DNA of 24,963 nucleotides, from the UHGV virus genome UHGV-0093507. One strand, 5' to 3'. Position numbers and translations under genes: made by a program. Under the pieces are notes generated by a model. The model did no database searches. It had not been told where the DNA came from and worked only from the letters and a program-made list of their open reading frames with translations. The first letter of the stretch is position 1. The number at the start of each line of letters is the position of its first letter. Below are positions 3,200 to 24,517 of this stretch, in pieces. This DNA comes from a virus.

Positions 3200-3202
3200 G
3201 AT

Positions 3203-6157: not shown

Positions 6158-6477
6158 TCGTCCTTCTCCTTCACCCTGCGATTAAAGGCCGCAATAACCT
6201 TGTCGCGTGCTTTCTCTGCACCCATAAAACCGATTGATGCGCCGATAAACGTCACGGCATCTTCAGGAAACCCGAAGAAGCGCAACGACCCGGCCACGGC
6301 CATGGCAAGAACGCCGCACGCCAGCGATCCTGTTACGGTCTGAACCAGTGTTCGTCCGTCATAAAGACTCATCAGCGCGGAAATGCTGACTGCCGCGCCT
6401 ACTGCATACACCGTTGGCAGGTGGTCAAAGAGCCACGCAATAACCTGCTCTGTGATCCCTGTTTGAATGGTGCTCAC
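6154..6477 (-). CDS. Putative holin
   Basis: Putative GTG start at 6477, 3 nt after the gpX stop. About 107 aa, hydrophobic stretches (AVGAAVSISALM, GSLACGVLAMAVAGSL) and a charged C-terminus (RRVKEKDE). Lies directly upstream of the endolysin with 4-nt overlap. The start codon is uncertain. Confidence 0.55.
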   Translation of the reverse strand: MSTIQTGITEQVIAWLFDHLPTVYAVGAAVSISALMSLYDGRTLVQTVTGSLACGVLAMAVAGSLRFFGFPEDAVTFIGASIGFMGAEKARDKVIAAFNRRVKEKDE

Positions 6478-6479
6478 TG

Positions 6480-6686
6480 CTACTCCCCCCACAACTGAAT
6501 CATTTCTCGTTTCTTCTTCTCCGGCTCCGGCATCTCCACTTCCTGCCCGGCGTCCAGAAATACTTGCTGACAGAGTCCGGGGTTGGCATCCAGCACCTTT
6601 TCGGTGACGCCCTGCGTCGTGCCGTAGTACCGGAAACAGAGCGAATCCACGGTGTCGCCTTCCAGTGCCTTCACTTTCATCAGCAC
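6480..6686 (-). CDS. X: Tail protein X (P2 gpX-like)
   Basis: 68-aa ORF, size and position as P2 X between L and the lysis genes. Confidence 0.7.
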   Translation of the reverse strand: MLMKVKALEGDTVDSLCFRYYGTTQGVTEKVLDANPGLCQQVFLDAGQEVEMPEPEKKKREMIQLWGE

Positions 6687-7183
6687 AACTCCGCAAAAAT
6701 TCGCGGGCGGCGCAGAATGTCAGAGATGGCCCAGCTCACATCACGCCACAAATCCGATGTCTGTATATCCAGAGCGTCCGCCCGGCGGTCGCCCTTGTCC
6801 GTTGTGTCTGCATCACGATAACGCTCCAGAATCAGGGCGCGTGTGGCGGTATAAACAGCATTGCGCCAGTGCCAGAGATTGACGCTTTCTCCGTTAATTA
6901 CGGGTGCCGGAACATCGGCCAGCGTCTGATGGCCAGCCGCCTGCTGTTCCTGCTGCCATGCTTCCAGCTCGCGGGTAACGTGTGCCACAGCTCCGGTGGC
7001 GGTATGCAGCAGGCGGGAGGTGGTCACGCGCCCCGGCAGTCGTACCGCCAGACGCAGCTCGCGCAACACAATATCCGGCCAGAATGCACCCGCTGAAATG
7101 CGGGTATCGCCATCATCGGTATCGGTGATGTCGTCCTCTGCGGGTCTGGGTTCAGTTCTGGCAACCATACTCATGGGGTTCAC
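6680..7183 (-). CDS. L: Head completion/stabilisation protein (P2 gpL-like)
   Basis: 167-aa ORF downstream of M; synteny. Confidence 0.8.
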   Translation of the reverse strand: MNPMSMVARTEPRPAEDDITDTDDGDTRISAGAFWPDIVLRELRLAVRLPGRVTTSRLLHTATGAVAHVTRELEAWQQEQQAAGHQTLADVPAPVINGESVNLWHWRNAVYTATRALILERYRDADTTDKGDRRADALDIQTSDLWRDVSWAISDILRRPRIFAELC

Positions 7184-7276
7184 TCCTGAAAAAAATCGGG
7201 CGGTGGGTGCGCGGTGTAAGCGGTCACGGAGTCAAACCGGAACACCGCGCACGCCGCCCGCTGACGGGGTCAGTCG

Positions 7277-8077
7277 TTAACCGCGCTTCGCCTTCTGCGT
7301 CGCGGTGGTTTTTCGTGTTGTAGGCTTCCGCGTTGTCTTTTTACTTTTGCTGCTTTCGTCCTGCGCCTGCTGTGCGCTGGCGTCTTCTGGTTCGGCTGCG
7401 GAATCGGCTTTTTTCAGGGCGCGGGAAAGGGTTGCAATCTCGCGTTTCACACCTGCGTTCGGGTTCAGGTGCATCGCTTCGCGCAGCAGCTTCAGTGATA
7501 AGGCCATGTTGTCTGCATCGGTCAGACCACGACGAGCAAAGGCGCACGCCTTGCATAATTTGGCGCGCACTTCGTCCGGCATGTCCTGGTCGGTGACAAT
7601 CTCCCGGAGGGTATCCAGTGGTTCGATAAAGGCGGACAAATCCGCGTCGGCATCCGTCCCGGCCTGCGTCAGTACCGGGTTGCAGATTTCTTCGGTCAGC
7701 ACTGTGGCAGCCGTACGGCCAAAGTTATCCGGCATAATGAGGTTATGACGGACCACATACGCACCAATACGCAACGCCAGCGGAAGATCGCCGCAATCAA
7801 TCGCCCACACCATCAGCGTGGCAATCACTTCGTCCTGCTGCCCGCCGTCAGCCTCCAGCGTTCCCTCAATCCAGCCGGAAAAGTCCGGCAACAACTCTTT
7901 TTTGATGGCGGCTTTCGCGCTTCTGGCCTGTACGCCCTTAAGACGGGCCTGTGCCAGACGCAGACGATACAGCACCTCTTCATGCGCGGTACGCGCGGCA
8001 TGGTCCACGCCTTCATTCGCCCGGCCTGCGCGCTGTGCCATCACGTTCTGCCAGTGTTGCTGTGCAGGAGTAATCAT
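7277..8077 (-). CDS. M: Terminase small (endonuclease) subunit (P2 gpM-like)
   Basis: 266-aa ORF with a highly basic, low-complexity C-terminal tail (KKTTRKPTTRKTTATQKAKRG); position between N and L. Confidence 0.8.
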   Translation of the reverse strand: MITPAQQHWQNVMAQRAGRANEGVDHAARTAHEEVLYRLRLAQARLKGVQARSAKAAIKKELLPDFSGWIEGTLEADGGQQDEVIATLMVWAIDCGDLPLALRIGAYVVRHNLIMPDNFGRTAATVLTEEICNPVLTQAGTDADADLSAFIEPLDTLREIVTDQDMPDEVRAKLCKACAFARRGLTDADNMALSLKLLREAMHLNPNAGVKREIATLSRALKKADSAAEPEDASAQQAQDESSKSKKTTRKPTTRKTTATQKAKRG

Positions 8078-8122
8078 TTTTTCTCTCCGTTACAGGCGGG
8101 CATGATGCCCGCCGTGAGTTGA

Positions 8123-9175
8123 TTAGCTGTCGGCGAACTTCAGGCCAGTGACCATCGCGCACTTGCCATAGTCTTCAACGACATAAGCGTCATTGATGGA
8201 CTGGTAGGTGGCGATGCGGTTGTATTCCGGTTCGTCTTTCATCAGACGACGCATTGAACCTTTCTGCCAGTAAATCGACAGGTTGTTGAATGAGGTGATC
8301 AGCATCGTTGCATCCGGGAAGAACGGCGCAAGGAACACGCCCAGCCCGCCAATGGTGCGCGATGACAGGATGAGCTGCCCGGCAAGTAATTCCGCATTGG
8401 GATTCTGGCCGCTGATGCTGTTCAGCACGGGCAGACGCAGCGAGTTAAACAGGTTGCGCCCCATAATCACCACGAGGTCGTCAGCTTCCTTGTGCCATTC
8501 ATCCAGCAGGGATGAGCGCGCGTCCTGTACCAGTGCATCAGGGTTCGCATACTTACCCGCGTGCGCCACGGTGTTGTCCATGTTGCGGGAGGTCAGCGTC
8601 ACGTCATTCATTACGCGCTCGCTGGCGTCGGCTCTGATGTGCTCCAGCCATCCCACGTTAACGTCCTGAAGCAGTTTGTTAGTGCTGAAGTTGGACTCAT
8701 CTGCGTGAGACGTGCCGTTGAAACCGATCATGATGCGGTCAAGCGCCACCTGCCGGGCAATCTGTGCGCTGATGCGGGACTGAAAATCGCTGTGTGCCGA
8801 CCAGGCATCAAGCTGTGGATACGAAATAAACGTGTCGTAGTTCACCTGTTCGCACTGGTATTTGCGGTTTTTCAGATCAACCACGTTATTCGGGTTACGG
8901 CGTTTTGTGCCGTCATAACTGGTATTCGTGCGCGCAATCGGTCCTGTGGTATCCAGGAGGATTTTTTCGCCTTTCTGGTCGGTCACGCCGATCACGTTAA
9001 TTCTTTTCGTTAGTTCTGTGCTGTCCTTTGAGGCGTTTTCAAAACGCTGCTGCACCGCGGGTTCCACGGTAAATCGCGATACCAGTGCAGATACCGGGAT
9101 ATTGTTAAGCGACGCCTGCTGCGCCATATAGCAACCCAGCTTGTTGCGGGTAATATCTGACATCACCAGATTCAT
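8123..9175 (-). CDS. N: Major capsid protein (P2 gpN-like)
   Basis: 350-aa ORF, size and position as P2 N, directly downstream of scaffold O. Confidence 0.85.
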   Translation of the reverse strand: MNLVMSDITRNKLGCYMAQQASLNNIPVSALVSRFTVEPAVQQRFENASKDSTELTKRINVIGVTDQKGEKILLDTTGPIARTNTSYDGTKRRNPNNVVDLKNRKYQCEQVNYDTFISYPQLDAWSAHSDFQSRISAQIARQVALDRIMIGFNGTSHADESNFSTNKLLQDVNVGWLEHIRADASERVMNDVTLTSRNMDNTVAHAGKYANPDALVQDARSSLLDEWHKEADDLVVIMGRNLFNSLRLPVLNSISGQNPNAELLAGQLILSSRTIGGLGVFLAPFFPDATMLITSFNNLSIYWQKGSMRRLMKDEPEYNRIATYQSINDAYVVEDYGKCAMVTGLKFADS

Positions 9176-9197
9176 AAAAATTTGCTCCTTTGTCTTA

Positions 9198-10067
9198 TCA
9201 GAAGTCAGCCAGCTGGTCGGAGGCTGCGCCTGTTGCGGTGAACCGGTTCTGCGGATCGCCGTCCTGCGTGCGCAGTTTTTCCTTCAGTGCTGTCAGCTCT
9301 GTGGTCAGTGACGTAATTTTCTGGCGGTCCTGCTGATGGCGGGTTTCCAGCACATTAAAACGGTCGATAATGTCGGCCTGTGACGTTGCGACGCCTTCCA
9401 CCGCTTCCTGAATACGGGAAAAACTGGCGTCATCCGCTTTGCGGCCACGGCCAATAATCCCCATTACGCGGTTAAACCACTGGGTGCCTTCTTCCTGGCG
9501 TTGTTCTGCCATTTCGATGATTTCAGACTCGATGGCTTCGGAGATAAGCGGCGCTTCACCCTGGACACTGTTGAACGTCATTACCGCCTGACGTTGCTGT
9601 GCCGTGAATTTCAGGCGCTCAGTGCCCAGGCTTGCCGGGGTGTCGGTCATCGCCAGCCCGACCAGATAGGCGCGCCCGTTAACGGAGAACTGCGGGTGCA
9701 GTTCGATACTGGAATAGATTTTCTTGCCGTCCGCGACAAGCTGCTTCATGCGCTCGGTCGGTTCGATTTCTGCATACAGCGCAGTACGTCCGGCCAGCGG
9801 ACCTTCCGTAATGTCTTCCGTACTCAGTGCGGTGACATCGCCCATTGCGGAAAATTCGCTTGACGGGCATGGCGAGAGATAGTGCTCAACGTTCACGCGG
9901 GCAGCGTAAACATCCGGGTTGAAGTTCTCGGCGGCTTCACGCAGATGCACCGGACTGATTTCACGGCCATCAACAGTTGATCCGGAGACAGCCACGCGAA
10001 ACTTTTTGCGGGATGTCTTTTTTTCATTAGCCATAGTTTTTGCCCCTCTGACTGGTTCTTCAGTCAT
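9198..10067 (-). CDS. O: Capsid scaffolding protein (P2 gpO-like)
   Basis: 289-aa ORF, first gene of the leftward late operon, divergent from P; acidic/coiled-coil character. Confidence 0.85.
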   Translation of the reverse strand: MTEEPVRGAKTMANEKKTSRKKFRVAVSGSTVDGREISPVHLREAAENFNPDVYAARVNVEHYLSPCPSSEFSAMGDVTALSTEDITEGPLAGRTALYAEIEPTERMKQLVADGKKIYSSIELHPQFSVNGRAYLVGLAMTDTPASLGTERLKFTAQQRQAVMTFNSVQGEAPLISEAIESEIIEMAEQRQEEGTQWFNRVMGIIGRGRKADDASFSRIQEAVEGVATSQADIIDRFNVLETRHQQDRQKITSLTTELTALKEKLRTQDGDPQNRFTATGAASDQLADF

Positions 10068-10188
10068 GATGGCAAAGCGTAACAGGCTGATACAAAGGGC
10101 TTTTGTTGTAAGAAAACGGCCAGAACAGGGGGTTAAGGAGAACGGTTTCGCGCGCGGGTAATCTTCCTGTAATTACTCAGGGGGAGCA
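10068..10188. promoter_or_regulatory. Divergent late-promoter region between O (leftward) and P (rightward)
   Basis: 121-bp intergenic spacer between divergently transcribed late operons. Contains a dyad acaaagggcttttgt reminiscent of the partial-dyad activator sites of P2-type late promoters. Promoter elements were not mapped precisely. Confidence 0.45.
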
Positions 10189-11940
10189 ATGATTCAGGAC
10201 GCTTTTGTGCGCCAGCGTGCGCGGCAACTTTACTGGCAGGGTTATCCGCCCGCAGAAATATCACGTCTGATGGGAATAAACCCGAACACGATTTATGCGT
10301 GGAAAAAACGCGACCAGTGGGATGAAACGCCCCCCGTGCAGCGTGTCACGCAGTCCATCGATGCGCGCCTCATCCAGCTTACTGAAAAACAGAATAAAAC
10401 AGGCGGTGACTTTAAGGAAATAGACCTGCTGACCCGGCAGCTTAAAAAGCTGCATGATGGCCAGCCGGATGTGATGGCCGCAGGAAAGAAAGGCCGGGCG
10501 AAAAAACTTAAAAATCATTTCACGCCGGAACAGATTGCCGCACTGCGGGAAAAAATCATCAGCAGGCTGGAGTGGCATCAGCGGGGCTGGTTTGACTCCC
10601 TGACACTTTGCAGGGAAGCCGGGATACGTAACAGGATGATCCTGAAATCCCGACAGATTGGGGCGACCTGGTATTTTGCACAGGAAGCTCTGCTGATGGC
10701 GCTGCGTGACGATGTGGCGCAACCTTACCAGCGTAACCAGATTTTTTTGTCTGCGTCGCGTCGTCAGGCGTTCCAGTTTAAAAGCATTATTCAGAAGGCC
10801 GCGGCTGAAGTTGATGTGGAGCTGAAAGGGGGCGATAAAATCATCCTCTCCAACGGCGCAGAGCTGCATTTTCTCGGCACTTCTGCTGCGTCGGCACAGT
10901 CCTATACGGGCAATTTTTATTTTGATGAATTTTTCTGGGTCAGTCGCTTTGCTGAACTGCGCAAGGTGGCTGGCGCTATGGCAACCCTCAGCGGACTGCG
11001 GCGCACCTACTTCTCCACACCATCCACCGAAACGCACGAGGCGTACGCCTACTGGAACGGCGACCGCTGGAACGAGAAAAAGGCCTCGCATAAACGCCAG
11101 AGTTTTTCTGTGGACTGGAAAACGCTGCATAACGGGCTTATCTGCCCTGACCGGACTTGGCGGCAAATTGTCACGCTGGAAGATGTGGTTAATCACGGCT
11201 GGAAACACACCGATATCGACGAAATTCGTGATGAAAACACCGAAGACGAGTTCCTCAATCTCTATATGTGTGAGTTTGTCCGCGAAGGGGAATCGGCATT
11301 TAACCTGAATATCCTGATTGGCTGCGGTGTTGACGGATACGACGACTGGAAAGACTGGAAACCTTTTGCTCCCCGCCCGATGGGGAATCGTCCGGTATGG
11401 ATTGGGTATGACGCAAACGGCAGCAGTGGCAACGGCGACAGCGGTGCTGTGTCCGTGGTGGTTCCTCCGGCTGTTCCTGGTGGCCGTTTTCGAACGGTGG
11501 AGACGCGACGCGTTCAGGGGCTGGAGTTTGAAGAACAGGCCAGAGTCATTGAAGAGTTCACGTGTCGCTATAACGTGGAACACATCGGCATTGATGTGAC
11601 GGGCGGGAACGGGGAGGCTGTTTATCAGATAGTGAAACGGTTTTTCCCTGCTGCTATTCCGTACACCTTCACGCTGTCATCAAAACGGTCGCTGGTACTG
11701 AAAATGCTGCAAATAATGCGTGCCGGGCGGTGGGAATACGATCGCGCCGAACGCGAGCTGGTCGCGGCCTTTAACGCCGTGCGTAAGGTGAAAACACCGG
11801 GCGGCTTTATCACTTACGAAACGGACCGCGCGAGGGGGATCAGCCACGGCGACCTTGCGTGGGCAACCATGCTTGCTGTCATTAACGAACCGATTGGCGG
11901 CGAAGGAGAAAACGAGCGTTTCACGGTTATGGAGTTCTGA
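10189..11940 (+). CDS. P: Terminase large (ATPase) subunit (P2 gpP-like)
   Basis: 583-aa ORF; N-terminus MIQDAFVRQRARQLYWQGYPPAEISRLMGINPNTIYAWKKRDQWDE is characteristic of P2 gpP; RBS gggggag upstream; stop overlaps the Q start (TGATG). Confidence 0.9.
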   Translation: MIQDAFVRQRARQLYWQGYPPAEISRLMGINPNTIYAWKKRDQWDETPPVQRVTQSIDARLIQLTEKQNKTGGDFKEIDLLTRQLKKLHDGQPDVMAAGKKGRAKKLKNHFTPEQIAALREKIISRLEWHQRGWFDSLTLCREAGIRNRMILKSRQIGATWYFAQEALLMALRDDVAQPYQRNQIFLSASRRQAFQFKSIIQKAAAEVDVELKGGDKIILSNGAELHFLGTSAASAQSYTGNFYFDEFFWVSRFAELRKVAGAMATLSGLRRTYFSTPSTETHEAYAYWNGDRWNEKKASHKRQSFSVDWKTLHNGLICPDRTWRQIVTLEDVVNHGWKHTDIDEIRDENTEDEFLNLYMCEFVREGESAFNLNILIGCGVDGYDDWKDWKPFAPRPMGNRPVWIGYDANGSSGNGDSGAVSVVVPPAVPGGRFRTVETRRVQGLEFEEQARVIEEFTCRYNVEHIGIDVTGGNGEAVYQIVKRFFPAAIPYTFTLSSKRSLVLKMLQIMRAGRWEYDRAERELVAAFNAVRKVKTPGGFITYETDRARGISHGDLAWATMLAVINEPIGGEGENERFTVMEF

Positions 11941-12986
11941 TGAGCAGAAAAAATAAAAAAGTGCGCATGAGTTCACGCATTGATCTCGCTGATGCGCTCA
12001 GGAAAGAATCATCGCTCAGTGCATTCACATTTGATGGTCCTTATCGCCTGACCGGGCATGACCTGCTGGATAATATGTACTGTGCTGATAACGGGCGGTG
12101 GTATGAAACCCCGGTGGACTGGTACGGTCTGGCAAGAGCTGCCCGGCAAACGTCCTGGCATCAGTCTGCGCTTTACTTTAAGCGCAATGTATTACTCGGT
12201 TGCTACATCCCGCACCCGCTGCTTTCCCGGCAGGATTTCTCGGCGCTGGCGCTGGACTGGTTTGTGTTCGGTAACGCATTCCTTGAGCTTCGTAGCAATA
12301 TGCTCGGCGAACCGCTTAAATTACGGCACGCCCTGGCGAAATACATGCGACGCGGAAGCGATCTTGAATCATGGTGGTATGTGCAGGATGGCAAGGACGC
12401 GTTCCAGTTTCGTCCTGGCAAAGTGTGCCACCTGATGAATCCGGATATTAACCAGGAAATCTACGGCATGCCGGAATATCTTGGCGCATTACTCTCGGCC
12501 AGCCTTTCTCATTCGGCGGACATGTTCAGAAAACTGTACTACGACAACGGATCCCACGCCGGGTGCATCATCTACATCGGTGCAGCGCAGGTAAACCGCG
12601 AAAGCATGGACTCCCTGAAAGAAACGTTACAAGGTGCGCGTGGTGGTGGTGCGTTTAAAAACGTGCTCATCCACGCGCCCAACGGGGGCAAAGAGGGGGT
12701 GCAAATTTTGCCGTTCCAGCAGATCACCGCAAAGGATGAGTTCATGAATGTTAAGGCGGCATCCCGTGATGATGTGCTGGCTGCGCACCGCGTTCCGCCG
12801 CAACTGATGGGGGCAATGCCGGGCGAAAAAAGTGCGTTTGGTGATGTGGAGAAGGCCGCGCGGGTTTATGCAATTAACGAGCTGATGCCCGTTATGGAGG
12901 CCATGAAGCACATCAATGACTGGCTTGGCGAAGAGGTGATCCGTTTTAATTCTTATGCTCTTCTTGATGAAAAAACAGCCCCGTGA
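11940..12986 (+). CDS. Q: Portal vertex protein (P2 gpQ-like)
   Basis: 348-aa ORF, size and position as P2 Q; translationally coupled to P. Confidence 0.9.
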   Translation: MSRKNKKVRMSSRIDLADALRKESSLSAFTFDGPYRLTGHDLLDNMYCADNGRWYETPVDWYGLARAARQTSWHQSALYFKRNVLLGCYIPHPLLSRQDFSALALDWFVFGNAFLELRSNMLGEPLKLRHALAKYMRRGSDLESWWYVQDGKDAFQFRPGKVCHLMNPDINQEIYGMPEYLGALLSASLSHSADMFRKLYYDNGSHAGCIIYIGAAQVNRESMDSLKETLQGARGGGAFKNVLIHAPNGGKEGVQILPFQQITAKDEFMNVKAASRDDVLAAHRVPPQLMGAMPGEKSAFGDVEKAARVYAINELMPVMEAMKHINDWLGEEVIRFNSYALLDEKTAP

Positions 12987-13002
12987 TGGGGCTGTCCTTT
13001 TT
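12975..13002. terminator. Bidirectional rho-independent terminator between convergent Q and the 174-aa cargo gene
   Basis: Hairpin acagcccc-gtgat-ggggctgt (12975-12995) followed by a T-run on the plus strand and flanked by an A-run (T-run on the minus strand). The Q stop codon lies in the loop. Confidence 0.65.
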
Positions 13003-13525
13003 ACCAGAGTTGAACCATTTTCTGGGTGCCGTCAGGCTTGAGATTATCAATTTCAGAGAGAACGTAATATTGAATGGCTTCACAAACGGTGGTGTATGGT
13101 GACTTACCTTCTTTAAGTGGCACGATATTATTATTAACGCGAACCTGTATTTCATCGTTATACATTGCGATCGAAAGAGGAGTATGCACGAAGGCGACTT
13201 CGCCAGGTGTGTCGTCAACCACTGTCTCAATGCTGAAAATCAGTTTTCGCTCATCATTGCCGCCCCTTGCTTTGGGGGTGGCGGCAGGAATCTGAGATAA
13301 AGGCATTCTACGAAACCCTTCAGTTGTTTCCAGTCCGCATGAAACGTAATGCTGGCGATTACCGTCGCTATCCGTCCATGTCTGTGATGGCAGCTCCAGA
13401 GAGATTTCATAAGCATCAACAATTCCCTGGGCAATGCGTACAAGTGGGGTCAGGTCTTCATTGCGGCGAAAACTCTCCTTTACCTGATCTCGTTTTTCTC
13501 GTAACTGCTTGTAATTAATGACCAT
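13001..13525 (-). CDS. Hypothetical cargo protein, 174 aa, no family recognised
   Basis: ATG at 13525 is preceded by GGAGG at a 7-nt spacing, giving MVINYKQLREKRDQ…; the track ORF extends 13 codons further upstream. Visibly AT-richer than the phage backbone; convergent with Q. Confidence 0.5.
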   Translation of the reverse strand: MVINYKQLREKRDQVKESFRRNEDLTPLVRIAQGIVDAYEISLELPSQTWTDSDGNRQHYVSCGLETTEGFRRMPLSQIPAATPKARGGNDERKLIFSIETVVDDTPGEVAFVHTPLSIAMYNDEIQVRVNNNIVPLKEGKSPYTTVCEAIQYYVLSEIDNLKPDGTQKMVQLW

Positions 13526-14136
13526 AAAACAGCCTCCATTGATTTCTTTGCTCGTATTTTGCACTTATGAAGTGTGGTCGGCAAGGTGCCGCATCACTGA
13601 CGCGCTTCGCTTGTCTGCTGCTTCGCCGGGGCATAAAAAATTTATGCCCCGACTCTCCAGCTCCTGTATCAATCAGATAATTTCACGACGTCTTCCGACT
13701 TATCGCTATCATCGACGGCCAGACTCTTACACAATCCCGCCGCGCTGACTGCATGTTCTCGCCGCCTCAGTGCGATTTTGACGGCCTTACCTTTCACCCC
13801 ATCAAATCAGAACACCTTACGTCTTTTTCACGCTCAGCGTGAGCGATACAGCCATTCTGTTGTGTCGCTGCGACATCGTTCATGGAATGCTATTTACCCC
13901 CTGAAACGCGGGCTGTTCCCCCGTCACCTGCGCGCAGAAAAAACGCGTTTTTTTGTGCACGCACGGATCCTTGGCGGATCCAGCCGCCACGCGGGCCGGA
14001 AGGGCAAAAAGTCGTTCAAAAAAATTGTGCAAATTTGTGCACAATCTTGCATTAAAATCAACGTTCAGTGGATGTATTTAAGCGAAAAAAAGATCTTTGT
14101 ATAATTTCGTTCGGTTACGTTGGTGAGAGGTTCTGA

Positions 14137-14538
14137 GTGAAAGACATCACATATTGGAATGATAAAATTCAGAAACAAATTGATAGTTATCCTGAAGCTG
14201 TTCGAGAAAGGATAAATTTTGAGCTTGTTGCACTGCAGAGCGATTGTCCTCATTCTTTCGACAGTTTCGATTTTCCAGTGGATGGTGATGATGCCTTGGG
14301 GGTTCCACCTGCTCAAAAAAAATCAATGCGGGAAACGATTGGTCGCTACGCAATGCAATTAACCATCAAGAGTAGTGATTCTTATCGTATGATTTACGTT
14401 GCGAAATTTGCGGAGTCTGTTTACATACTTCATACATTTAAGAAAAAGACAAATGGTGTGTCAAAAAAAGAATATGAGACAGCTGCCGCAAGATACAAAC
14501 AATTAGTGGAGTATCGTCGTAAAAATGGCTTAAGATAG
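14137..14538 (+). CDS. Gp49-like / HigB-like RelE-superfamily toxin candidate
   Basis: GTG start with RBS gagagg upstream. C-terminal motif YRMIYVAKFAESVYILHTFKKKT…KKEYETAAARYKQL matches the Gp49-like (DUF891) pattern. A TATAAT hexamer at 14100-14105 and a ttgtgcaaatttgtgcaca repeat lie upstream. Confidence 0.6.
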   Translation: MKDITYWNDKIQKQIDSYPEAVRERINFELVALQSDCPHSFDSFDFPVDGDDALGVPPAQKKSMRETIGRYAMQLTIKSSDSYRMIYVAKFAESVYILHTFKKKTNGVSKKEYETAAARYKQLVEYRRKNGLR

Positions 14539-14608
14539 CTTGCAGGTATCTCAAATCTGATATAACATAATCAATGTCAGCAACATCGCTGATTAAGGCT
14601 GGAGAGTT

Positions 14609-14926
14609 ATGGAATTCGTCGTAGTCAAAAACCCTTATGCGTCATCAAGTAGCTCTGTAAATGAAGCTAGTGATAAACACATCCGGGCCCAATTAATGGT
14701 TATTATCCGAAAAATGATTCAGGAGCGCGGTCTTACCCAGCGAGAAGCTGCTGAATTGCTGGAAACAACCCAACCAAGAGTAAGCGAAATCATTAATGGT
14801 AAGTTAGATAATCATACCATTGATCGACTGTTTATCATGCTAAACATCCTGGGGTGGGATTTTAAGTTTGGGTATTCCGGTGGGGTTGTTACTGCGACGG
14901 CAGAACATTCCTGTCAGGTTGCATAA
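14609..14926 (+). CDS. XRE-family helix-turn-helix protein, HigA-like antitoxin/regulator candidate
   Basis: 105-aa ORF with HTH signature ERGLTQREAAELLETTQPRVSEIINGK; immediately downstream of the Gp49-like gene (toxin-first HigBA-type arrangement). Confidence 0.65.
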   Translation: MEFVVVKNPYASSSSSVNEASDKHIRAQLMVIIRKMIQERGLTQREAAELLETTQPRVSEIINGKLDNHTIDRLFIMLNILGWDFKFGYSGGVVTATAEHSCQVA

Positions 14927-14932
14927 ATATTA

Positions 14933-14966
14933 AGCCCCTGACGGGGCCAACCGTCAGGGGCTTTTC
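14933..14966 (+). terminator. Rho-independent terminator after the HTH gene
   Basis: Perfect 12-bp stem agcccctgacgg / ccgtcaggggct with 6-nt loop, followed by TTTT, 7 nt after the stop codon. Confidence 0.7.
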
Positions 14967-15091
14967 AACACAAAGAAATGATAGTCTGAGAAATATCATC
15001 ACCTTGATGTTTTGCATGTACAACTGTGATTCTAGTCAATCCAGGCAGATAATCAAGGTAAAAATCATTCTCAGTAAGGAGGTGATTATGG

Positions 15092-15241
15092 ATGGCTTTG
15101 AAATCAATTGTAAAAAAACCGGCTCCGAAAGGATTTCGTTGGCAGTTTTGCCGATACCGTAAGGTTCGTGGTGATTCTGGTCGAAAGCTGGATGCTCATG
15201 AGTATGGCTGGAAAGCTTGGGCGTTTCTAGTGCGAAGCTGA
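15092..15241 (+). CDS. Small basic, Trp-rich ORF (49 aa), absent from the ORF track, function unknown
   Basis: Strong RBS aaggagg (15077-15083) with 8-nt spacing to ATG 15092. Hand translation gives MALKSIVKKPAPKGFRWQFCRYRKVRGDSGRKLDAHEYGWKAWAFLVRS; a terminator hairpin follows directly. Confidence 0.35.
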   Translation: MALKSIVKKPAPKGFRWQFCRYRKVRGDSGRKLDAHEYGWKAWAFLVRS

Positions 15242-15256
15242 TATTTGATATTTAAA

Positions 15257-15281
15257 AGCATGGCGAAAGCCATGCTTTTTG
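15257..15281. terminator. Rho-independent terminator between the convergent small ORF and parR, possibly bidirectional
   Basis: Stem aagcatggc / gccatgctt with GAAA loop, followed by TTTTT on the plus strand. Confidence 0.65.
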
Positions 15282-15284
15282 TGA

Positions 15285-15599
15285 TCATTCAGGAAAAAAT
15301 TCCTGAATATTCTTTTTTATTTGACTTATATTCTGATTTTTGCAACCAACAGGCTCGCTGTTATGCCAGCCCCATATGTGATTGTTGGCAGGCATATTTT
15401 CCCCCTCTGACCATTCAGCCAGCCAGTAAGCAAAGGCAGGATCGTTTTTAATGAGTGCCAGTCCAGCCAGAAATGCCGCGCGTTGCGCGCGGCTGCGTTC
15501 GGAGGCTGGCAGGCTGTCGAGATAATTACACGCTTCCCGTTCACTCTTGACTGCAGCTGGCTTCAGATAGAAACTTATCCGTCTGGTTGGTGTCGTCAT
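15285..15599 (-). CDS. parR: ParR-like partition adaptor (type II, actin-type partition system)
   Basis: ATG at 15599 with AAGGAG RBS overlapping the parM stop. 104 aa; the N-terminal segment RISFYLKPAAVKSEREACNYLDSLPASERSRAQRAAFLAGLAL resembles plasmid R1 ParR as recalled from memory. The track ORF is longer (149 aa, alternative upstream start). Confidence 0.6.
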   Translation of the reverse strand: MTTPTRRISFYLKPAAVKSEREACNYLDSLPASERSRAQRAAFLAGLALIKNDPAFAYWLAEWSEGENMPANNHIWGWHNSEPVGCKNQNISQIKKNIQEFFPE

Positions 15600-15603
15600 T
15601 GGT

Positions 15604-16563
15604 TTACTCCTTGTCCATTGCGTACAGCCCATTAACCAGAGCAAACTGTGGCACCCCGTCCGCGATGAAAGTCGCATTAACTCCGCAGGCTTCGCGGATA
15701 GCGGGTGCCACAATCTCCGCCCCTCCACCGACAACCATCACCCGCCCGTAACCCGAAAAACCCGCCAGCGCGCGGCTCACGCGTTGTTTCAGTGTTTCTT
15801 CCTTTTCACGAATAACCGCCATCAGGCTGTTGTAATGCGCGTCATTGTGGATGTGCTGGCGCAGCCAGGCTTCATCATGGCGATGTTCGATAATGGTATT
15901 GGCGATGTGGTGACTGGTACGCATACCGTTAGTGGCCATCACCGACAGTACGGCATCGGCCATCAGGGAAACGCCTACGTGTGGATCGCAAAACACCTGG
16001 CTGATACCTGCCAGTTGTCCCTGAACCTTTGCCACATCCAGCGTGGTTCCGCCTAAATCCACAATCAGCAGGGATTCAAACGGACTCATGTCAGCCAGTG
16101 CTTTAAAGCCAGCCGGAATGGATTCAGGCATAACCCGCACGTTACGGATAGTGAATGCCTCACCGTTCTGGTACTCCACCGGGCGCATAACGTTTGCTTT
16201 TTTGCGGTTGATGTTGGCCATGTCCGGCTGTGCGTTTGTGTCGAAATATTCGCTCAGTGGCAGGGTGACAACCACATCCACTTCCTGTGGTGTGATGCCT
16301 GATTTGACCAGCGCGTGATGAATGGCAATGACATTCACATCGCTGTACTGGTATTGCGTGTCGGTCGTCTGGACAAAGCGATCACTGACCGGATCAAAAC
16401 CATAGCGCACGCCATCAAGCATGTAGTTCGCGGGCTGCGTGCCACCGAACGGCGCAGACCATTCCGACTTGAAGCTGTTCGGGCTGATGGCGTTGCGGCG
16501 TTCGCCGTTCTCAGTCCATGCCAGCTTGATGTTGGTGGAGCCGTCATCGATACAAATTTTCAT
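15604..16563 (-). CDS. parM: ParM/StbA-like actin-like segregation ATPase
   Basis: 319-aa ORF; N-terminal phosphate-1 motif MKICIDDGSTNIKLAW plus later motifs (PESIPAG, IVDLGGTTLDV, VMVVGGGAE) resemble R1 ParM as recalled from memory; RBS aagga upstream. Confidence 0.8.
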   Translation of the reverse strand: MKICIDDGSTNIKLAWTENGERRNAISPNSFKSEWSAPFGGTQPANYMLDGVRYGFDPVSDRFVQTTDTQYQYSDVNVIAIHHALVKSGITPQEVDVVVTLPLSEYFDTNAQPDMANINRKKANVMRPVEYQNGEAFTIRNVRVMPESIPAGFKALADMSPFESLLIVDLGGTTLDVAKVQGQLAGISQVFCDPHVGVSLMADAVLSVMATNGMRTSHHIANTIIEHRHDEAWLRQHIHNDAHYNSLMAVIREKEETLKQRVSRALAGFSGYGRVMVVGGGAEIVAPAIREACGVNATFIADGVPQFALVNGLYAMDKE

Positions 16564-16597
16564 GTCGCTTTTCCTTATGTTGATTAATTAATCGTTT

Positions 16598-16712
16598 GCG
16601 GGATTCTGAAATCCCGTTTTTGCCTGTTTTATGCGCGCTTCATATATCGCGGCGCGTTTTTTGCTCATTTACGGGATTTGTGAATCCCGTTTCTGTCTGT
16701 TTTTTGTTTCCA
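16598..16712. repeat. Two ~42-bp direct repeats, each holding a 16-bp near-palindrome (gggattctgaaatccc / gggatttgtgaatccc) and a T-rich tail; copy 2 lies inside the 3' end of gene A
   Basis: Copy 1 16598-16640 (tgcgggattctgaaatcccgtttttgcctgtttt), copy 2 16670-16712 (tacgggatttgtgaatcccgtttctgtctgtttt). They sit immediately upstream of parM on its coding strand. Confidence 0.55.
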
Positions 16713-19507
16713 CTGGTCAGGCCACCCCGCAGCAGGTCTGCTTTGCGGCGGGCGCGTTCAGTAGTTTCACTGATTCTCTGTGCGTGCTCTGCGTCGCGGA
16801 TGGCGCGCAGCATGTCAGAAAGCACGGTAACGGGTGTTTTCATGGTGTTCTGGTCCTGCTGAAGTGTGGATGCCAGGCGTGCGGCGGCTTCGGGGTCTGA
16901 TGCCCCCAGCTGTTCCAGATAGCTGGCGACCGGGTTATGGCGGATCTCCGTACTGCTTACGCCGTGGTTACGGCTCAGGCGCTGCCAGAGCTGCGTGATC
17001 CGGCTGTCCGGTCGGGTATCCGGTTTGCGTACAATTTCAAATCCCTGCGGTGCAATGATGCTGCCGTCAACGTACAGACTGCCGCCCCGTAACAGGTGCT
17101 GCATCTGCTGTTCACCGATATGCAGGCCGAGAGATTCAGCAGACTCCCGCCATTCTTTAGCGAGTAATTCGTGGTTATCAGGCAAAGGCCGCTGCTGTTT
17201 GCGGCTCTGTGTCCAGCTCTGCATTTCATCACTGCTGTTTTTTGCCTGTTTGTCACGCAGCGAACGCATCAGCGCCCGGCGTTCGTGCCGTTTCAGTGAG
17301 CGCATCCATTCGTTCACTTCAACGCCGTCAGGGAGCTGCGGCCACGGTGCTGGCCGTTCTTCCGGCTGTTCTGTCCCGTTGTTGTCCGTTTCCTGTACAC
17401 GGGGACAGTTATTGCCACGAGTCCAAGGGGCGGCAGGGCCGCCCTGAAGGTCAAAACCATTTTCGCGGGCGCTGTCTTCCACTTCCGGTTTACGTCTTAC
17501 CAGCTTCCAGTTATCCGGATGCGTGCACACGCGGGAGGATTCCCCGATGAGTGGTGACCAGATCCCGTAAATCTGTACACTCTGTTCGCCGTAATCGTTC
17601 AGCTCATCTGCGAGGTCGTAGGCGGTGCGAATCAGGTAGTCCTTGCGCGGAACAAGTACGCCGCCCTGTTTCTCAATGTAGGTGGCAAAACACCCTGCAT
17701 CAGCGGCAGCGAGTACCGCATCCATTGCGTCATCCTTCAGCCGTTGCGGACCTTCCGGGTTGCGTGCCATCTGGCTGGCAAGGCGGCGCAGTTCACGCCA
17801 CACCTGACGGGAGGGGATGCCAAAGAACTGGAACTGGCGGACCCGGTGAAGGCGCGCCCAGCCGATGGCGCGTTCCACGCTCTCGGCCATTGATTTTCCG
17901 GTTTCGTGGTCAACGCGTGGCTTGCCCGTTTTCGGGTCGATGCCATCCACGGCGCGGCTGTCCAGGTTCTTTCCGATGTAGGTGGCGATGTAGCTGGTTG
18001 GCGTGCCTTTTGAGCCGTCTACGTACTCCGCCTTAAAACGCGGAGTTATGTCATCGCCCAGCTCGTGGCGGTCTTCCTGAATGGCAATATCGCAGACGTG
18101 GGACACGATGGTTTCAATCTCGTCCGGATGTGCAAAGACCATCATATGCCAGTGCACAGTGCCGTCATGGTGAGGCTCCACCGTGCGGATGCCATACCAG
18201 CGCAGACCGTCGCGGTTCAGTTTTTTGCGGACCGCCGCAAAAAACGTGTTAACCAGGTAATCGCTGGAGTCGCGCATGGTGGCCCCGTTCCATTTGGGGT
18301 TCGGATGACCGTTCTCTGTTGTGGCGTGGTATTTTGACGGGCAGGTGACAGTCAGAAACACCGCTCTGTCGCCACGGGCTTCGGCCAGAAGTTCCAGTCC
18401 CTTCATGGTGGCCATCATTTCTGCCTTACGGTGAACCGGGTTACTTACTCCCGCGTAATACACCGTCTCGAGATCAATCGTGAACCCGTCTTCATTTTCC
18501 AGCATGAAACTTTTCAGGAAATCGCGTGTTTTCTCGCGCTGTGCGCGAAACTCGCTTAACGCGTCCTGGCTCAGATAGGGTGATGTTTTTCTGGAAACCA
18601 GACAGGCGGCGCGGAGTTGTTCTTCTCTCCACTCGCAACGTAACAGCCACAGTTTGCGTTTCCACCATTCCGCACAGGTCAGGCGAAGGATTGTGCCCGG
18701 CAGCAGCTCCGTGTCCGGTTCGTTCCTCCGGTCTTTATCTGTTGTCAGTGCGTCATAATGTGGAGGCATGGCGTGCAGGTGTAACGCCATGCGGGCCAGC
18801 ATCTGATACGCCTTCAGCGTTACATCCATGGTCAGTTCGCCATCAGTCGCGCCAAAGCCATCGCAGAGTTTTTCGAAGGTGCTGCTGAACATCGCCGCCG
18901 TCATGGTGGCCAGCGTCTGTATCTGGTGTTTGTTGAGCTGCGGCAGGTAAAGCAAATCGTCCAGGCGTTCGCGTCCGGCAAGGGAGCGATAACCCGGTGT
19001 CAGCCAGCGGCTGTCGGTGCGGTCCAGACGTTCGAATATTTTGCGCAGGGTTCCGCGTGTATAGCGTTCCGCCTGCCAGCTCTTTTTGCCTTTCTGACGA
19101 TCGGCTTCCTGCTTCTTGCGCAGGAAAGAGAGGTGGCGGCTCAGAGGTTCTCGCAGATAAACGGGAAGCGCCTTCAGTGTGGCAAAGGCACGGGCTACCG
19201 GGTCTTGTTCTGTTGCCCGGCGCTTACTGATGATGCTCTGTGCCAGCTTTTCACGCTGTCCGGCTTCCTCAAGGGATGCCATGAGTTTTTTACCCATGGC
19301 GGATTGTGCGAAAAAGGCTTCTTCCTTCGCTTCCTGTTCTTCCTGTGCCCTTTTGTCCGCCTCAAGGTAGTAACGGATGGCGCGTTGCAGGTCGGTTTCA
19401 GTTTCCTGCCTGCGCTCCGTAAATCTGGCCGGATCAATAGCTGGTCGTGGTTCATTCCAGCTCCATGCAAACTCACTCATGGCTGGTATCCCGTCACGCG
19501 CTGCCAC
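16640..19507 (-). CDS. A: Replication initiation endonuclease (P2 gpA-like rolling-circle initiator)
   Basis: 955-aa ORF with HUH-type motif (…DGTVHWHMMVFAHPDE…); last large gene of the early operon. Confidence 0.8.
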   Translation of the reverse strand: MAARDGIPAMSEFAWSWNEPRPAIDPARFTERRQETETDLQRAIRYYLEADKRAQEEQEAKEEAFFAQSAMGKKLMASLEEAGQREKLAQSIISKRRATEQDPVARAFATLKALPVYLREPLSRHLSFLRKKQEADRQKGKKSWQAERYTRGTLRKIFERLDRTDSRWLTPGYRSLAGRERLDDLLYLPQLNKHQIQTLATMTAAMFSSTFEKLCDGFGATDGELTMDVTLKAYQMLARMALHLHAMPPHYDALTTDKDRRNEPDTELLPGTILRLTCAEWWKRKLWLLRCEWREEQLRAACLVSRKTSPYLSQDALSEFRAQREKTRDFLKSFMLENEDGFTIDLETVYYAGVSNPVHRKAEMMATMKGLELLAEARGDRAVFLTVTCPSKYHATTENGHPNPKWNGATMRDSSDYLVNTFFAAVRKKLNRDGLRWYGIRTVEPHHDGTVHWHMMVFAHPDEIETIVSHVCDIAIQEDRHELGDDITPRFKAEYVDGSKGTPTSYIATYIGKNLDSRAVDGIDPKTGKPRVDHETGKSMAESVERAIGWARLHRVRQFQFFGIPSRQVWRELRRLASQMARNPEGPQRLKDDAMDAVLAAADAGCFATYIEKQGGVLVPRKDYLIRTAYDLADELNDYGEQSVQIYGIWSPLIGESSRVCTHPDNWKLVRRKPEVEDSARENGFDLQGGPAAPWTRGNNCPRVQETDNNGTEQPEERPAPWPQLPDGVEVNEWMRSLKRHERRALMRSLRDKQAKNSSDEMQSWTQSRKQQRPLPDNHELLAKEWRESAESLGLHIGEQQMQHLLRGGSLYVDGSIIAPQGFEIVRKPDTRPDSRITQLWQRLSRNHGVSSTEIRHNPVASYLEQLGASDPEAAARLASTLQQDQNTMKTPVTVLSDMLRAIRDAEHAQRISETTERARRKADLLRGGLTSGNKKQTETGFTNPVNEQKTRRDI

Positions 19508-19866
19508 TCCTGCGAGAAGAGGGCAGAAAGGCGGTTAAATTCAGCGGTGTATTCACTCAGCGAGGCACACCCGCCAGCAGTGCGATGCGCCAGCATTGCC
19601 GCAAATACGGAGGCCGGGGAGTCGTAATACGCCAGCAGTGATTCTCCGTGTGGTGTCAGGTAGTGCAACGCCAGCCCGTGTGGTGTGAAGTCCACGCGGT
19701 AGCAGTCGTCTACTGTGAAATAAAGGGTGTCTGCATTCTCCGGTTTTGTGGTGCGTGCTCTGTTGTCACGACCACGGATGTAGAGAGCAAATAATCCCTG
19801 AAGAACGGGAGCCAGACGGGTGTCCTGTGTGCGCACCCATCTTGTGAAGTCATGAGCGTCAATCAT
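19477..19866 (-). CDS. Hypothetical early protein immediately upstream of A
   Basis: 129-aa ORF whose 3' end overlaps the A start by about 30 nt; no family recognised. Confidence 0.5.
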   Translation of the reverse strand: MIDAHDFTRWVRTQDTRLAPVLQGLFALYIRGRDNRARTTKPENADTLYFTVDDCYRVDFTPHGLALHYLTPHGESLLAYYDSPASVFAAMLAHRTAGGCASLSEYTAEFNRLSALFSQEWQRVTGYQP

Positions 19867-21254: not shown

Positions 21255-21277
21255 TGCGCCCCCTTTGTCCAGTAACC

Positions 21278-21694
21278 CTATGCGTTAAATACGGCACGTT
21301 GCGCGTCATCAATGAATACAGCTTGAGATCGTTCTATCAGGCGGAGATTTGTCAGAAGCTCTGACTCTTTTGTGTGGTAAGGCGTTATCAGGTATTTGCC
21401 GTGCAGTTCGGCAATAATGGTGTATTGCGTCATTATTGCCGAACCAAGAATGTAAATGCGGCGTCCAATGCTGGACGGATTCATGGCTGCAACTGTTGAC
21501 TGTGTTTTAAGAGTGTCGATTTCTTTGCCCTGTTCCTCAATAATTTTGGCTGCGTCAGCGGTGATTTTTGCAATGGTCAGTGCGTGAAGTGCTGCCATAT
21601 GTTGGCTACGCTTCACGGCATCTTTAGCCATTTCATCTTCCGCTTCTGATATTTTTTTTAATGTGTCGATAATGCCTTCTTCTTTTGCGTTCAT
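21278..21694 (-). CDS. Hypothetical protein in an AT-rich block of the early region
   Basis: 138-aa ORF with a Lys/Glu-rich, coiled-coil-like N-terminal half; visibly lower GC than flanking phage genes. Confidence 0.45.
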   Translation of the reverse strand: MNAKEEGIIDTLKKISEAEDEMAKDAVKRSQHMAALHALTIAKITADAAKIIEEQGKEIDTLKTQSTVAAMNPSSIGRRIYILGSAIMTQYTIIAELHGKYLITPYHTKESELLTNLRLIERSQAVFIDDAQRAVFNA

Positions 21695-21793
21695 TTTATA
21701 TCTCCGTTATTTACGTGTGCGAATACCTCCGTTAATACGGATGGTTTTCACGTTTTCTTATTTAATTTGATGTTTTATTTGTATCGTTATTCA

Positions 21794-22446: not shown

Positions 22447-22785
22447 TTATAAATCAGCCTGTTTAATAAAACTTTGCCCGCGAAGCAGACGATCAACCGT
22501 GCGAAGTGCTTCGTATAATGTGAAATCCTGCCCGAACTGATTGTCGCCACAGCTCAATGCAAAAATGCGGTTTCCGGTAAACGGATTGCGTGGGCATTTG
22601 TGGATCACGATTCCAGCTTTCTCAATCAGCCAGGCGTGCTCGCCGATTTGTTTTACTGGGTAGCCATCCGGCGTTGCGTGTGTATCACTCAGGCTGTAGC
22701 GGATGTTGCTGCGTGATGCACTGGTAGTGAAACGGTTAGCGTGGCGTTCTGTTCCGGTACGAAAATTACGGCGTTGCTTCAGCAT
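22447..22785 (-). CDS. Hypothetical early protein
   Basis: 112-aa ORF, second gene of the leftward early operon. Confidence 0.4.
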   Translation of the reverse strand: MLKQRRNFRTGTERHANRFTTSASRSNIRYSLSDTHATPDGYPVKQIGEHAWLIEKAGIVIHKCPRNPFTGNRIFALSCGDNQFGQDFTLYEALRTVDRLLRGQSFIKQADL

Positions 22786-22799
22786 AAAATGACACCTCG

Positions 22800-23078
22800 T
22801 TATTTTGTCATCTGCACGTATTTTTCTGCGCTCCTGATTGTTTTCAGGAAAAGAGCGAAGAGATTTACTGTGCGTCTTGAGTTCTTTTCATCCTGGTTGA
22901 TGGGAATTGAACCTCTGTCAGCCTGTCTTTTCACTGTGTTAACAGCTTGGTTGGTACGCTTTGCGTAATCTTTCAGGCTTTCTTCAAGTACTGGTAACCC
23001 ATGCTCATCGCGGTAGGGATAGAACGCTGCTAAACGCTCAAAGTCTGCCTGTTCGTGTGTGTTCAGGACTTTTGCCAT
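22800..23078 (-). CDS. Cox-like / excisionase-type small DNA-binding regulator, first gene of the early operon, divergent from repressor C
   Basis: 92-aa ORF positioned exactly as P2 cox relative to C and the operators; possible HTH around AKRTNQAVNTVKRQADRGSIP. The assignment is positional, not from sequence identity. Confidence 0.45.
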   Translation of the reverse strand: MAKVLNTHEQADFERLAAFYPYRDEHGLPVLEESLKDYAKRTNQAVNTVKRQADRGSIPINQDEKNSRRTVNLFALFLKTIRSAEKYVQMTK

Positions 23079-23117
23079 GTGTGATAACCTGCGCTATCTG
23101 TGGTTGTTTGTGACTTG

Positions 23118-23170
23118 GTGTACTTATAAGTACACCTTGTGCGCAAGCTTAGTGTACTTATAGGAACACT
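23118..23170. promoter_or_regulatory. Immunity-switch operator region: an 18-bp perfect palindrome and a related imperfect second site between cox-like and C
   Basis: gtgtacttataagtacac (23118-23135, perfect palindrome) and agtgtacttataggaacact (23151-23170); the shared 11-mer gtgtacttata recurs 34 bp apart. TATAAG-like hexamers are embedded in both orientations. Confidence 0.6.
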
Positions 23171-23174
23171 GTCA

Positions 23175-23483
23175 ATGCTTATCGGTGAAAAAATTAGAGT
23201 GATTCGTGAATCAGAGGATTTAACGCGCGAAGAATTTTGCGGCCTGATTGATGTGCCTATCGGCACTTTGCGTCGTTATGAAACGGGGAGGATTGAAAAC
23301 ATAGGTGGCGAAGTGCTTATCAAGATTGTTAATCACCCTCGCTTTTTTAAGTACATGAATTGGCTTATGACGGGAAAAACAAATGAGGCTGCTGGGCAGA
23401 TCAGTCCGTCTCTCTCCCCTGATGGGCCAAAAAGCACATCGCCTTCTCAAAAACCCCGCAAGACTGGCACACAGCCCGGCTAA
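23175..23483 (+). CDS. C: Immunity repressor (P2 C-like)
   Basis: ATG at 23175 directly after the second operator. HTH segment (…REEFCGLIDVPIGTLRRYETG…) and C-terminal HPRFFKYMNWLMTGKTNEAAGQISPSL resemble P2 C as recalled from memory; the track ORF starts 12 codons further upstream. Confidence 0.7.
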   Translation: MLIGEKIRVIRESEDLTREEFCGLIDVPIGTLRRYETGRIENIGGEVLIKIVNHPRFFKYMNWLMTGKTNEAAGQISPSLSPDGPKSTSPSQKPRKTGTQPG

Positions 23484-23532
23484 TCATGGAGCGCTGGGGG
23501 CATGGTGGTCTTGTAACGCTGGGGTTTCACGA

Positions 23533-24507: not shown

Positions 24508-24517
24508 GGAGGATGTT

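Follow-up and report, generated by a model that had tools for sequence, protein, structure and literature searches.

A conserved backbone and two short variable slots between the portal and replication genes of a P88-type P2-like prophage

Introduction

When plasmid-type partition genes and a toxin-antitoxin pair lie side by side in a prophage, did they arrive together as cargo, or do they belong to different layers of the phage genome? The question is raised by UHGV virus genome UHGV-0093507, a DNA of 24,963 nucleotides (hereafter the window, meaning the whole stretch that was analyzed). Between its portal gene Q and its replication gene A are found a partition operon, parM-parR (parMR), a toxin-antitoxin pair and two further genes, ORF174 and ORF49. 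The original prediction, made from the sequence alone, described this interval as a mosaic cargo island of five unrelated modules that looked more like a plasmid stability region than a known defense island.

Rousset et al. 2022 (PMC9122126) described the gpA-gpQ hotspot of P2-like phages. They reported a putative partition system there in about one in four of these phages and suggested that it might permit maintenance in a plasmid state. The hotspot, the partition genes within it and the type of toxin-antitoxin pair are all already described. Comparison of the window with its relatives reveals that the interval is not a single mosaic island. It consists of a conserved backbone and two short variable slots.

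Results

Two variable slots interrupt the backbone

The interval extends exactly from the stop codon of Q (12986) to the stop codon of A (16640). Phage_portal and Phage_GPA domains in the flanking genes confirm the predicted location in the P2 accessory hotspot; the A protein shares 31% identity with its P2 counterpart. This is the known variable, probably cos-proximal gpQ-gpA region, already described as a hotspot. P2 holds old and tin here. The interval has a homologue of neither, as predicted; tblastn with P2 Old, Tin and Orf91 against 12900-19600 gave nothing better than E 5.5.

To locate the borders of conserved and variable DNA, the interval was compared with seven relatives by local blastn. 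The breakpoints are sharp (Table 1), and about 2 kb of the 3.65-kb interval is variable. On the left, the last 25 nt of Q (from 12962) are already unlike in relatives with and without slot 1, placing the breakpoint at 12961. The left edge of slot 2 falls at 14052-14063 and its right edge at 15404-15410, within parR. Drops in GC content match both slot borders exactly, and 0 of 397 windows of 1340 bp outside the variable slots (12962-15403) have a GC content as low as slot 2. The low GC content predicted for 13000-15300 holds for each slot but is not continuous, as the middle block has a GC content of 0.52.

The two slots vary independently. Of the eight loci retrieved with the identical toxin, seven are without any gene in slot 1, and in the remaining locus this gene is a different one. 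Slot 2 had at least seven alternative contents in a spread sample of E. coli genomes: DUF4760, XF1762, ClpX zinc-finger, Ead/Ea22, DUF3800, Doc/Phd, or no annotated gene. Alignment to other P2-like prophages bears out one part of the predicted mosaic of five modules, namely that content varies among near-identical prophages, in what prove to be two slots. The other part fails, since parMR and the block at 13589-14063 are conserved in the whole lineage.

Gene orientation in the interval is mixed, with ORF174, parR and parM on the minus strand and the toxin, the antitoxin and ORF49 on the plus strand. Strong hairpins stand between the units at the four positions given in Table 1, and 9 terminator-like hairpins were counted compared with 4.6 +/- 2.4 in shuffled sequence. 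Mixed orientation and strong terminators between units had both been predicted.

Table 1. Layers and features of the interval between Q and A.
Feature	Position	Strand	Layer	GC	Description
Portal gene Q	11940..12986	+	conserved up to 12961	0.531	Left conserved flank; Pfam Phage_portal
Slot 1	12962-13588		variable	0.456	
Bidirectional hairpin terminator	12970..13000				Between Q (+) and ORF174 (-)
ORF174	13001..13525	-			174 aa; accessory protein without known function; phrog_5091
Conserved non-coding block	13589..14063		conserved	0.52	475 bp; core 13907-14041 (135 bp); probably cos
Hairpin	13627-13651				Within conserved block
Slot 2	~14064-15403		variable	0.401	True cargo position, equivalent to P2 old/tin
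Putative sigma-70 promoter	14077..14105	+			Toxin-antitoxin operon; -35 TTTAAG, 17-nt spacer, -10 TATAAT; read from sequence
Toxin	14137..14538	+			133 aa; Gp49/DUF891, RelE/ParE superfamily (HigB-like); Pfam PF05973 50 bits, cut-off 23.9
Antitoxin	14609..14926	+			105 aa; HTH_37 (HigA-like); Pfam PF13744 67.7 bits, cut-off 27; PDB 2a6c E 2.8e-11
Hairpin	14932..14963				13-bp stem; ends toxin-antitoxin operon
ORF49	15092..15241	+			49 aa; small basic protein without known function; phrog_33859, PHROG 4.8e-24
Bidirectional hairpin terminator	15254..15279				Common to ORF49 (+) and parR (-)
parR/stbB	15285..15599	-			104-aa centromere-binding adaptor; Pfam Plasmid_stab_B 89.8 bits
parR 5' part and parM	15404-16563		conserved	0.546	
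parM	15604..16563	-			319-aa actin-like segregation ATPase, R1 type; Pfam StbA_N 1.7e-82, ParM C-terminal domain 2.9e-68
Candidate parC/operator	16592..16706				Two 42-nt repeat copies (16592-16633, 16665-16706), 73 bp apart
Replication gene A	16640..19507	-	conserved	0.572	Rolling-circle initiator; right conserved flank; Pfam Phage_GPA 2.2e-129

The partition operon belongs to the backbone

ParM is of the true R1 type and aligns with R1 ParM (1mwk) over residues 2-316 with its nucleotide-binding motifs in register (E 3.8e-92). ParR has a weak match to pB171 StbB (PDB 2jd3, E 0.0035), and the parR start codon lies 4 nt past the parM stop. The system resembles R1 ParMRC in the full-length ParM alignment, the position of parR directly downstream, the StbB-family ParR and the repeats that flank the presumed promoter. 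Unlike R1 ParMRC it resides on an integrating phage, its ParM is about 52% identical to plasmid ParMs, and its candidate centromere consists of two 18-bp palindromes.

In a spread sample drawn from the 1440 matching E. coli records, about 90% carry parMR, always adjoining A, which amounts to roughly one in four complete genomes. Over 55 pairwise comparisons parM has a median dN/dS of 0.06, indicating strong purifying selection. In PLSDB, six records have a ParM 98-99% identical to that of the window and all others are at or below 53%, with no intermediates. The one of the six records that was examined is a complete P88-like genome in a 34,461-bp circular plasmid record.

More distant loci were obtained from a protein search with contig look-ups; a ParM search of genome contigs gave three near-identical loci. 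ParM homologues 54-63% identical to the window's are found in P2-like prophages of Plesiomonas, Hafnia, Serratia and Enterobacter, in the order A-parM-parR-cargo-portal. Because the same order occurs in four other genera, the linkage of A and parMR appears to be old and inherited with the phage. These comparisons indicate that parMR is a fixed, old part of the backbone of this phage lineage and not cargo. A ParM 97% identical to the window's was also seen on a 226-kb contig labeled Vagococcus sp. (L029, NZ_JBQPOM010000071.1). Since Vagococcus is an unlikely host for an enterobacterial P2-like phage, this assembly is probably contaminated.

The border between backbone and cargo runs through parR. 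The 3' third of the gene (15285-15403) is part of the exchangeable segment, so that the C-terminal third of ParR travels with the cargo. Despite this swapping, the C-terminal region ends in a preserved motif, I..NI..(L/F)FPE. Among close relatives, two alleles of the ParR N-terminus are in circulation.

A candidate centromere lies upstream of parM

Each of the two 42-nt repeats upstream of parM contains an 18-bp palindrome, CGGGATT-N4-AATCCCG (16599-16616 and 16672-16689). The presumed parM promoter is situated between the two palindromes, the distal one of which falls within the last codons of A. No further copy of this palindrome occurs in the window, and both are kept in all close relatives. 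The phages of Plesiomonas and Hafnia, which have the ParR N-terminal strand of the window, possess two similar GGGA...CCC sites 72-75 bp apart. Those of Serratia and Enterobacter have a different ParR N-terminus and one large inverted repeat of different sequence. The repeat pattern fits a centromere or operator bound by ParR, and we refer to it as candidate parC.

The conserved middle block probably holds cos

The two slots are separated by a non-coding block (13589-14063) that is 92-94% identical in every relative, including one of another genus. Both ends of the linear P88_4B11 record meet at window position 14006|14007. A P2-like phage that is more distantly related has the core of the block at 81%, again between cargo and the portal-side gene. 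These observations suggest that the block probably holds cos.

Boundary alignment revealed three TTGTGCA-type repeats at an exact 10-bp spacing (14025, 14035 and 14045) that close the block, and relatives diverge right after them. The repeats may form a terminase-binding or other protein-binding array beside cos. The third repeat is degenerate in the window and intact in relatives (the repeats span 14025-14051).

Slot 2 carries a toxin-antitoxin cassette and ORF49

Slot 2 DNA was found in 2 of 5426 complete E. coli genomes and has no plasmid match. In draft assemblies the identical toxin gene is always located in slot 2. The cassette is 99.8-99.9% identical among loci, with flanks of 94-98% identity and, in one locus, a terminase and portal of only 83%. 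Such near-identity on diverged backbones (83-98%) shows recent exchange by recombination. A plasmid origin of the cassette was considered and rejected, as there is no plasmid DNA match and the nearest relatives are in lambdoid prophages.

The toxin gene comes first and is followed on the same strand, after a 70-bp gap, by the antitoxin gene, with one hairpin terminator after the pair. A protein identical to the toxin is named RelE/ParE toxin in RefSeq. The toxin has no NCBIfam model match and no PDB match by sequence, and the profile of its subfamily gives a marginal match to S. pneumoniae HigB (6af3, E 0.04). The subfamily is small, with 22 clusters of homologues. Its members have an acidic insert, rich in aspartate and glutamate and variable in length, between the N-terminal helices and the beta sheet (residues ~45-60; alignment columns ~50-85). 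This insert is shortest in the window's copy. The Gp49 toxin is most likely a translation-dependent (ribosome-dependent) mRNA endonuclease restrained by the antitoxin.

The antitoxin is always paired with the toxin, also in Enterobacter lambdoid prophages, where a related pair (76% protein and 71% nucleotide identity) lies between the replication and late-regulation genes. Toxin-first type II pairs of the Gp49/HTH_37 (HigBA-like) kind are known, for example, from Tn3-family transposons (PMC7157771). The window's pair shares with them the two Pfam families, the toxin-first order and the character of a mobile passenger module. It differs from the Tn3-family pairs in its small subfamily, its acidic insert and its carriage by P2-like and lambdoid temperate phages.

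The candidate promoter of the pair scores under the scan threshold, and its -10 region is the left end of the part common with the Enterobacter cassette. Its spacer contains the palindrome AAAGATCTTT. This palindrome was considered as a conserved antitoxin operator and dropped, being absent from the Enterobacter cassette.

ORF49 is preceded by a strong ribosome-binding site, AAGGAGGTG, 6 nt upstream, and is annotated as a gene in most assemblies of relatives. A homologue with 75% identity adjoins the integrase of a lambdoid phage, and ORF49 is missing from the Enterobacter copies of the toxin-antitoxin cassette. It is a separate unit from the pair. The predicted RNA fold of its leader (14965-15100) is not significant (z = -1.45).

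The interval proteins were run against PADLOC-DB 2.0. No defense system was matched at system level, in agreement with the prediction that this is not a known defense island. Only marginal single-domain matches were found, to NsnC (0.0026) and, for the antitoxin, to the candidate PDC-M64C (5.4e-05). Toxin-antitoxin and defense-like genes recur at the equivalent slot across genera: HicA/HicB in a Serratia phage (L034, 5450-6084), a YafO-family toxin in another P2-like phage (L023, 3095-3475) and a KAP NTPase in an Enterobacter phage (L035, 5411-6757).

Slot 1 holds ORF174 and is missing in several relatives

Slot 1 is occupied in some P88-like prophages and missing in P88, Chuche, Shae_phiSM, P88_4B11 and 500465-2. 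The window's allele is found in 397 of 5426 complete E. coli genomes, all chromosomal. Its single gene, ORF174, starts with the ATG at 13525, which has a GGAGG ribosome-binding site 7 nt upstream; the mechanical open reading frame (ORF) of 187 aa reaches back to a GTG at 13564. MVINY is the N-terminus in all ORF174 homologues.

ORF174 matches its PHROG at 1.9e-65. It has no match in Pfam, NCBIfam or PADLOC, 50 relatives likewise have no Pfam match, and a PDB profile search with the family returned noise only. Homologues comprise 18 close clusters and 77 remote representatives. A 60%-identical relative is also arranged tail-to-tail with the portal gene of another P2-like phage, and remote relatives occur close to lysis genes in lambdoid prophages and within the baseplate module of a myovirus. 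One relative has another gene in slot 1, and this gene is distantly homologous to ORF174 (E 9e-10), which suggests that filled slot 1 holds divergent alleles of one family. In the predicted structure (pLDDT 77) a pair of long helices forms the N-terminal part, with an antiparallel sheet and a helix at the C-terminus; the model gave no convincing structural neighbor. It is conceivable, though speculative, that the family is a new exclusion or counter-defense factor.

The remainder of the prophage

The DNA of the window belongs to an integrated prophage that is P2-like and of the P88 type (Xuanwuvirus). The nearest phage records are P88-type Peduoviridae, namely P88, Shae_phiSM, P88_4B11 and others, and P2-type capsid, terminase and tail genes are present in the annotation of a relative. 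The nearest genome match is an integrated prophage adjoining yecA in an E. coli chromosome, with 98.7% identity across the whole interval. In complete E. coli genomes 1735 of 1737 matching places are chromosomal. The window has its own integrase at 23383-24507.

Positions 1245-19159 are colinear with the closest relative at 97%, and 22750-24963 (the immunity/integrase end) and 1-1244 (the tail-fiber end) are unrelated in DNA. As the integrase is unlike that of the closest relative, the attachment site is probably different too. A 448-bp segment at 21266-21713 is missing from the two closest relatives. It contains a 138-aa ORF (21278-21694, minus strand) with no Pfam match, and the lowest-GC 1340-bp window outside the variable slots (0.437) begins at 21151 and covers it. 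The segment looks like a further small insertion slot in the early region. An Rfam search of 12900-16900 found no RNA gene, the only hit being a sub-threshold His_leader (E 0.086).

Discussion

A two-layer organization

We consider it probable that the interval is built in two layers. The backbone would comprise the cos block and parMR linked to A, and cos would be flanked by two independent cargo slots. If the system works like R1 ParMRC, ParR would bind the paired palindromes upstream of parM, and free circular phage genomes would be separated or positioned by ParM filaments driven by ATP. Such circles would arise after infection, after excision and during A-driven rolling-circle replication. 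Cargo in both slots would be exchanged by recombination in the conserved flanks. The slot 2 operon would be self-contained, with its own promoter and terminator serving the HigB-like toxin and the HigA-like antitoxin. The toxin would most likely halt growth when the antitoxin supply fails, either as a penalty on prophage loss or to abort the infection of a second phage.

Several points weigh against this organization or parts of it. Nearly all copies are integrated, which leaves the need for a partition system unexplained. The placement of cos relies on the ends of one deposited linear record. The P2 cos sequence has no match in the window at up to 3 mismatches, blastn gave no significant alignment to the P2 cos junction, and no mapping of cos ends was found in the literature, the P88 paper making no mention of cos. 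Position alone argues for a defense role of the cargo, because PADLOC returned no defense system. Both palindromes of candidate parC are also terminator-like on the plus strand, and there are only two of them. R1 parC, by comparison, has many iterons, direct repeats that form two sets. In close relatives the palindromes show no covariation with the two ParR alleles; none is expected, because the N-terminal strand is common to both alleles and the palindromes are themselves conserved.

Two integrating elements provide precedents. In the integrative and conjugative element (ICE) R391, a conserved srpMRC operon and a variable hipAB pair stabilize the excised, rolling-circle-replicating form, and both reduce loss (PMC4489591, Carraro et al. 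2015). Four short repeats, direct and inverted, make up the srpC centromere upstream of srpM (PMC4489591). R391 and the window's prophage are alike in that each integrates and has a rolling-circle initiator, a conserved actin-type partition operon and a toxin-antitoxin pair that is not conserved. In both, a few direct or inverted repeats lie upstream of the ATPase gene, those of the window being a candidate centromere only. R391 differs in being conjugative, and SrpM/SrpR are distant from R1 ParMR, of which the window's system is a close relative. The function of the R391 system has been demonstrated, whereas that of the window is read from sequence.

The Corynebacterium prophage CGP3 requires the actin-like protein AlpC and its adaptor AlpA for efficient replication (PMC4446434, Donovan et al. 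2015). CGP3 resembles the window's prophage in being integrated and in coding for an actin-like protein together with an adaptor that binds DNA; AlpA binds upstream of the operon, and the pair acts on the excised circle. AlpC differs in being a distant actin-like protein from a Gram-positive host, with the adaptor gene placed before the ATPase gene.

Alternative explanations

The cargo of slot 2, and perhaps ORF174, could be an abortive-infection defense against phages. An incoming phage would shut off host transcription or degrade the antitoxin, and the freed toxin would stop translation. The position is a validated P2 defense hotspot, the cargo is rare, low in GC content and recently exchanged, and relatives of all three cargo genes occupy accessory positions in other temperate phages. 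The weak match of the antitoxin to PDC-M64C points the same way. Against it, no curated defense model matches the toxin or ORF174, and we know of no experiment on the toxin subfamily. The hotspot also carries genes with functions other than defense (PMC9122126). We regard a defense role as possible but on balance doubtful.

Alternatively, the toxin-antitoxin pair could be an addiction module that penalizes cells in which the prophage or its excised circle is lost, and thereby complements parMR, as in R391, where hipAB and srpMRC both cut loss. Doc/Phd, HicAB or YafO genes are found at this position in other relatives, but in most relatives the slot has no toxin-antitoxin pair. Furthermore, an integrated prophage is rarely lost, and the benefit may be small. 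An addiction function is somewhat unlikely.

We also wondered whether the two palindromes might be transcription terminators, part of a replication origin or the operator of another regulator, with parC elsewhere or absent. Their number and their scores as plus-strand intrinsic terminators would suit this explanation, as would the location of the P2 origin inside gene A. However, no plus-strand gene ends there, and nicking in P2 takes place about 430 nt away from the end of A and not at its last codons. Paired symmetric repeats recur upstream of parM in four distant relatives, with a sequence that differs between the two ParR N-terminal types, and the repeats of srpC have the same position relative to srpM. 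A role other than that of a centromere seems somewhat unlikely.

The likeness to a plasmid stability region that had been predicted stands as far as protein families go, with an R1-type ParM, a Plasmid_stab_B ParR and a type II Gp49/HTH_37 pair; it fails for parMR, which appears to be fixed phage backbone, and for the cassette. That the whole interval is a laterally acquired plasmid-type stability island, in which partition and toxin-antitoxin genes arrived together as cargo, is very improbable and largely refuted by the differing distribution, composition and age of its parts: although plasmid partition families include ParM and ParR, plasmids are classically stabilized by toxin-antitoxin pairs and both systems lie between Q and A, parMR has the GC content of the backbone compared with 0.40 for the pair, is carried by about one in four complete E. 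coli genomes compared with 2/5426 for the cassette, is at most 53% identical in ParM to plasmid systems and is linked to A in four other genera, while the cassette has its relatives in lambdoid prophages and none in plasmid DNA.

Implications

The locus agrees with the hotspot of Rousset et al. (PMC9122126) in its position between Q and A, its variable content and its StbA and Plasmid_stab_B genes; the adjoining cos is putative here. In the part of the locus table of that study covered here, StbA with Plasmid_stab_B arrangements and the ORF174 family protein WP_001407222 are listed, with no Gp49/HTH_37 arrangement among the entries. Rousset et al. took the contents of the Q-A interval together, whereas two slots astride a putative cos and a fixed parMR are resolved here. 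What is added is anatomy. Cargo enters two slots astride a putative packaging site, and the partition operon appears to be old backbone, linked to A across at least five genera. If parMR is backbone, surveys that treat everything between Q and A as cargo overcount 'systems'.

The rare toxin-antitoxin cassette, ORF174 and ORF49 are candidates for the phage-exclusion assays that exist for this hotspot. The two-layer organization also raises the question why an integrating lineage found in about a quarter of E. coli genomes keeps a plasmid-type segregation machine under strong selection, and a candidate centromere is now defined for that question. One speculative answer, which we think unlikely, is that P88-type P2-like phages are facultative episomes. 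A, ParMR and the palindromes would let an excised or unintegrated genome persist and segregate like a low-copy plasmid, with toxin-antitoxin cargo as a second stabilizer, as in R391. If this were true, a lineage present in about a quarter of E. coli genomes would be an unrecognized class of phage-plasmid hybrid.

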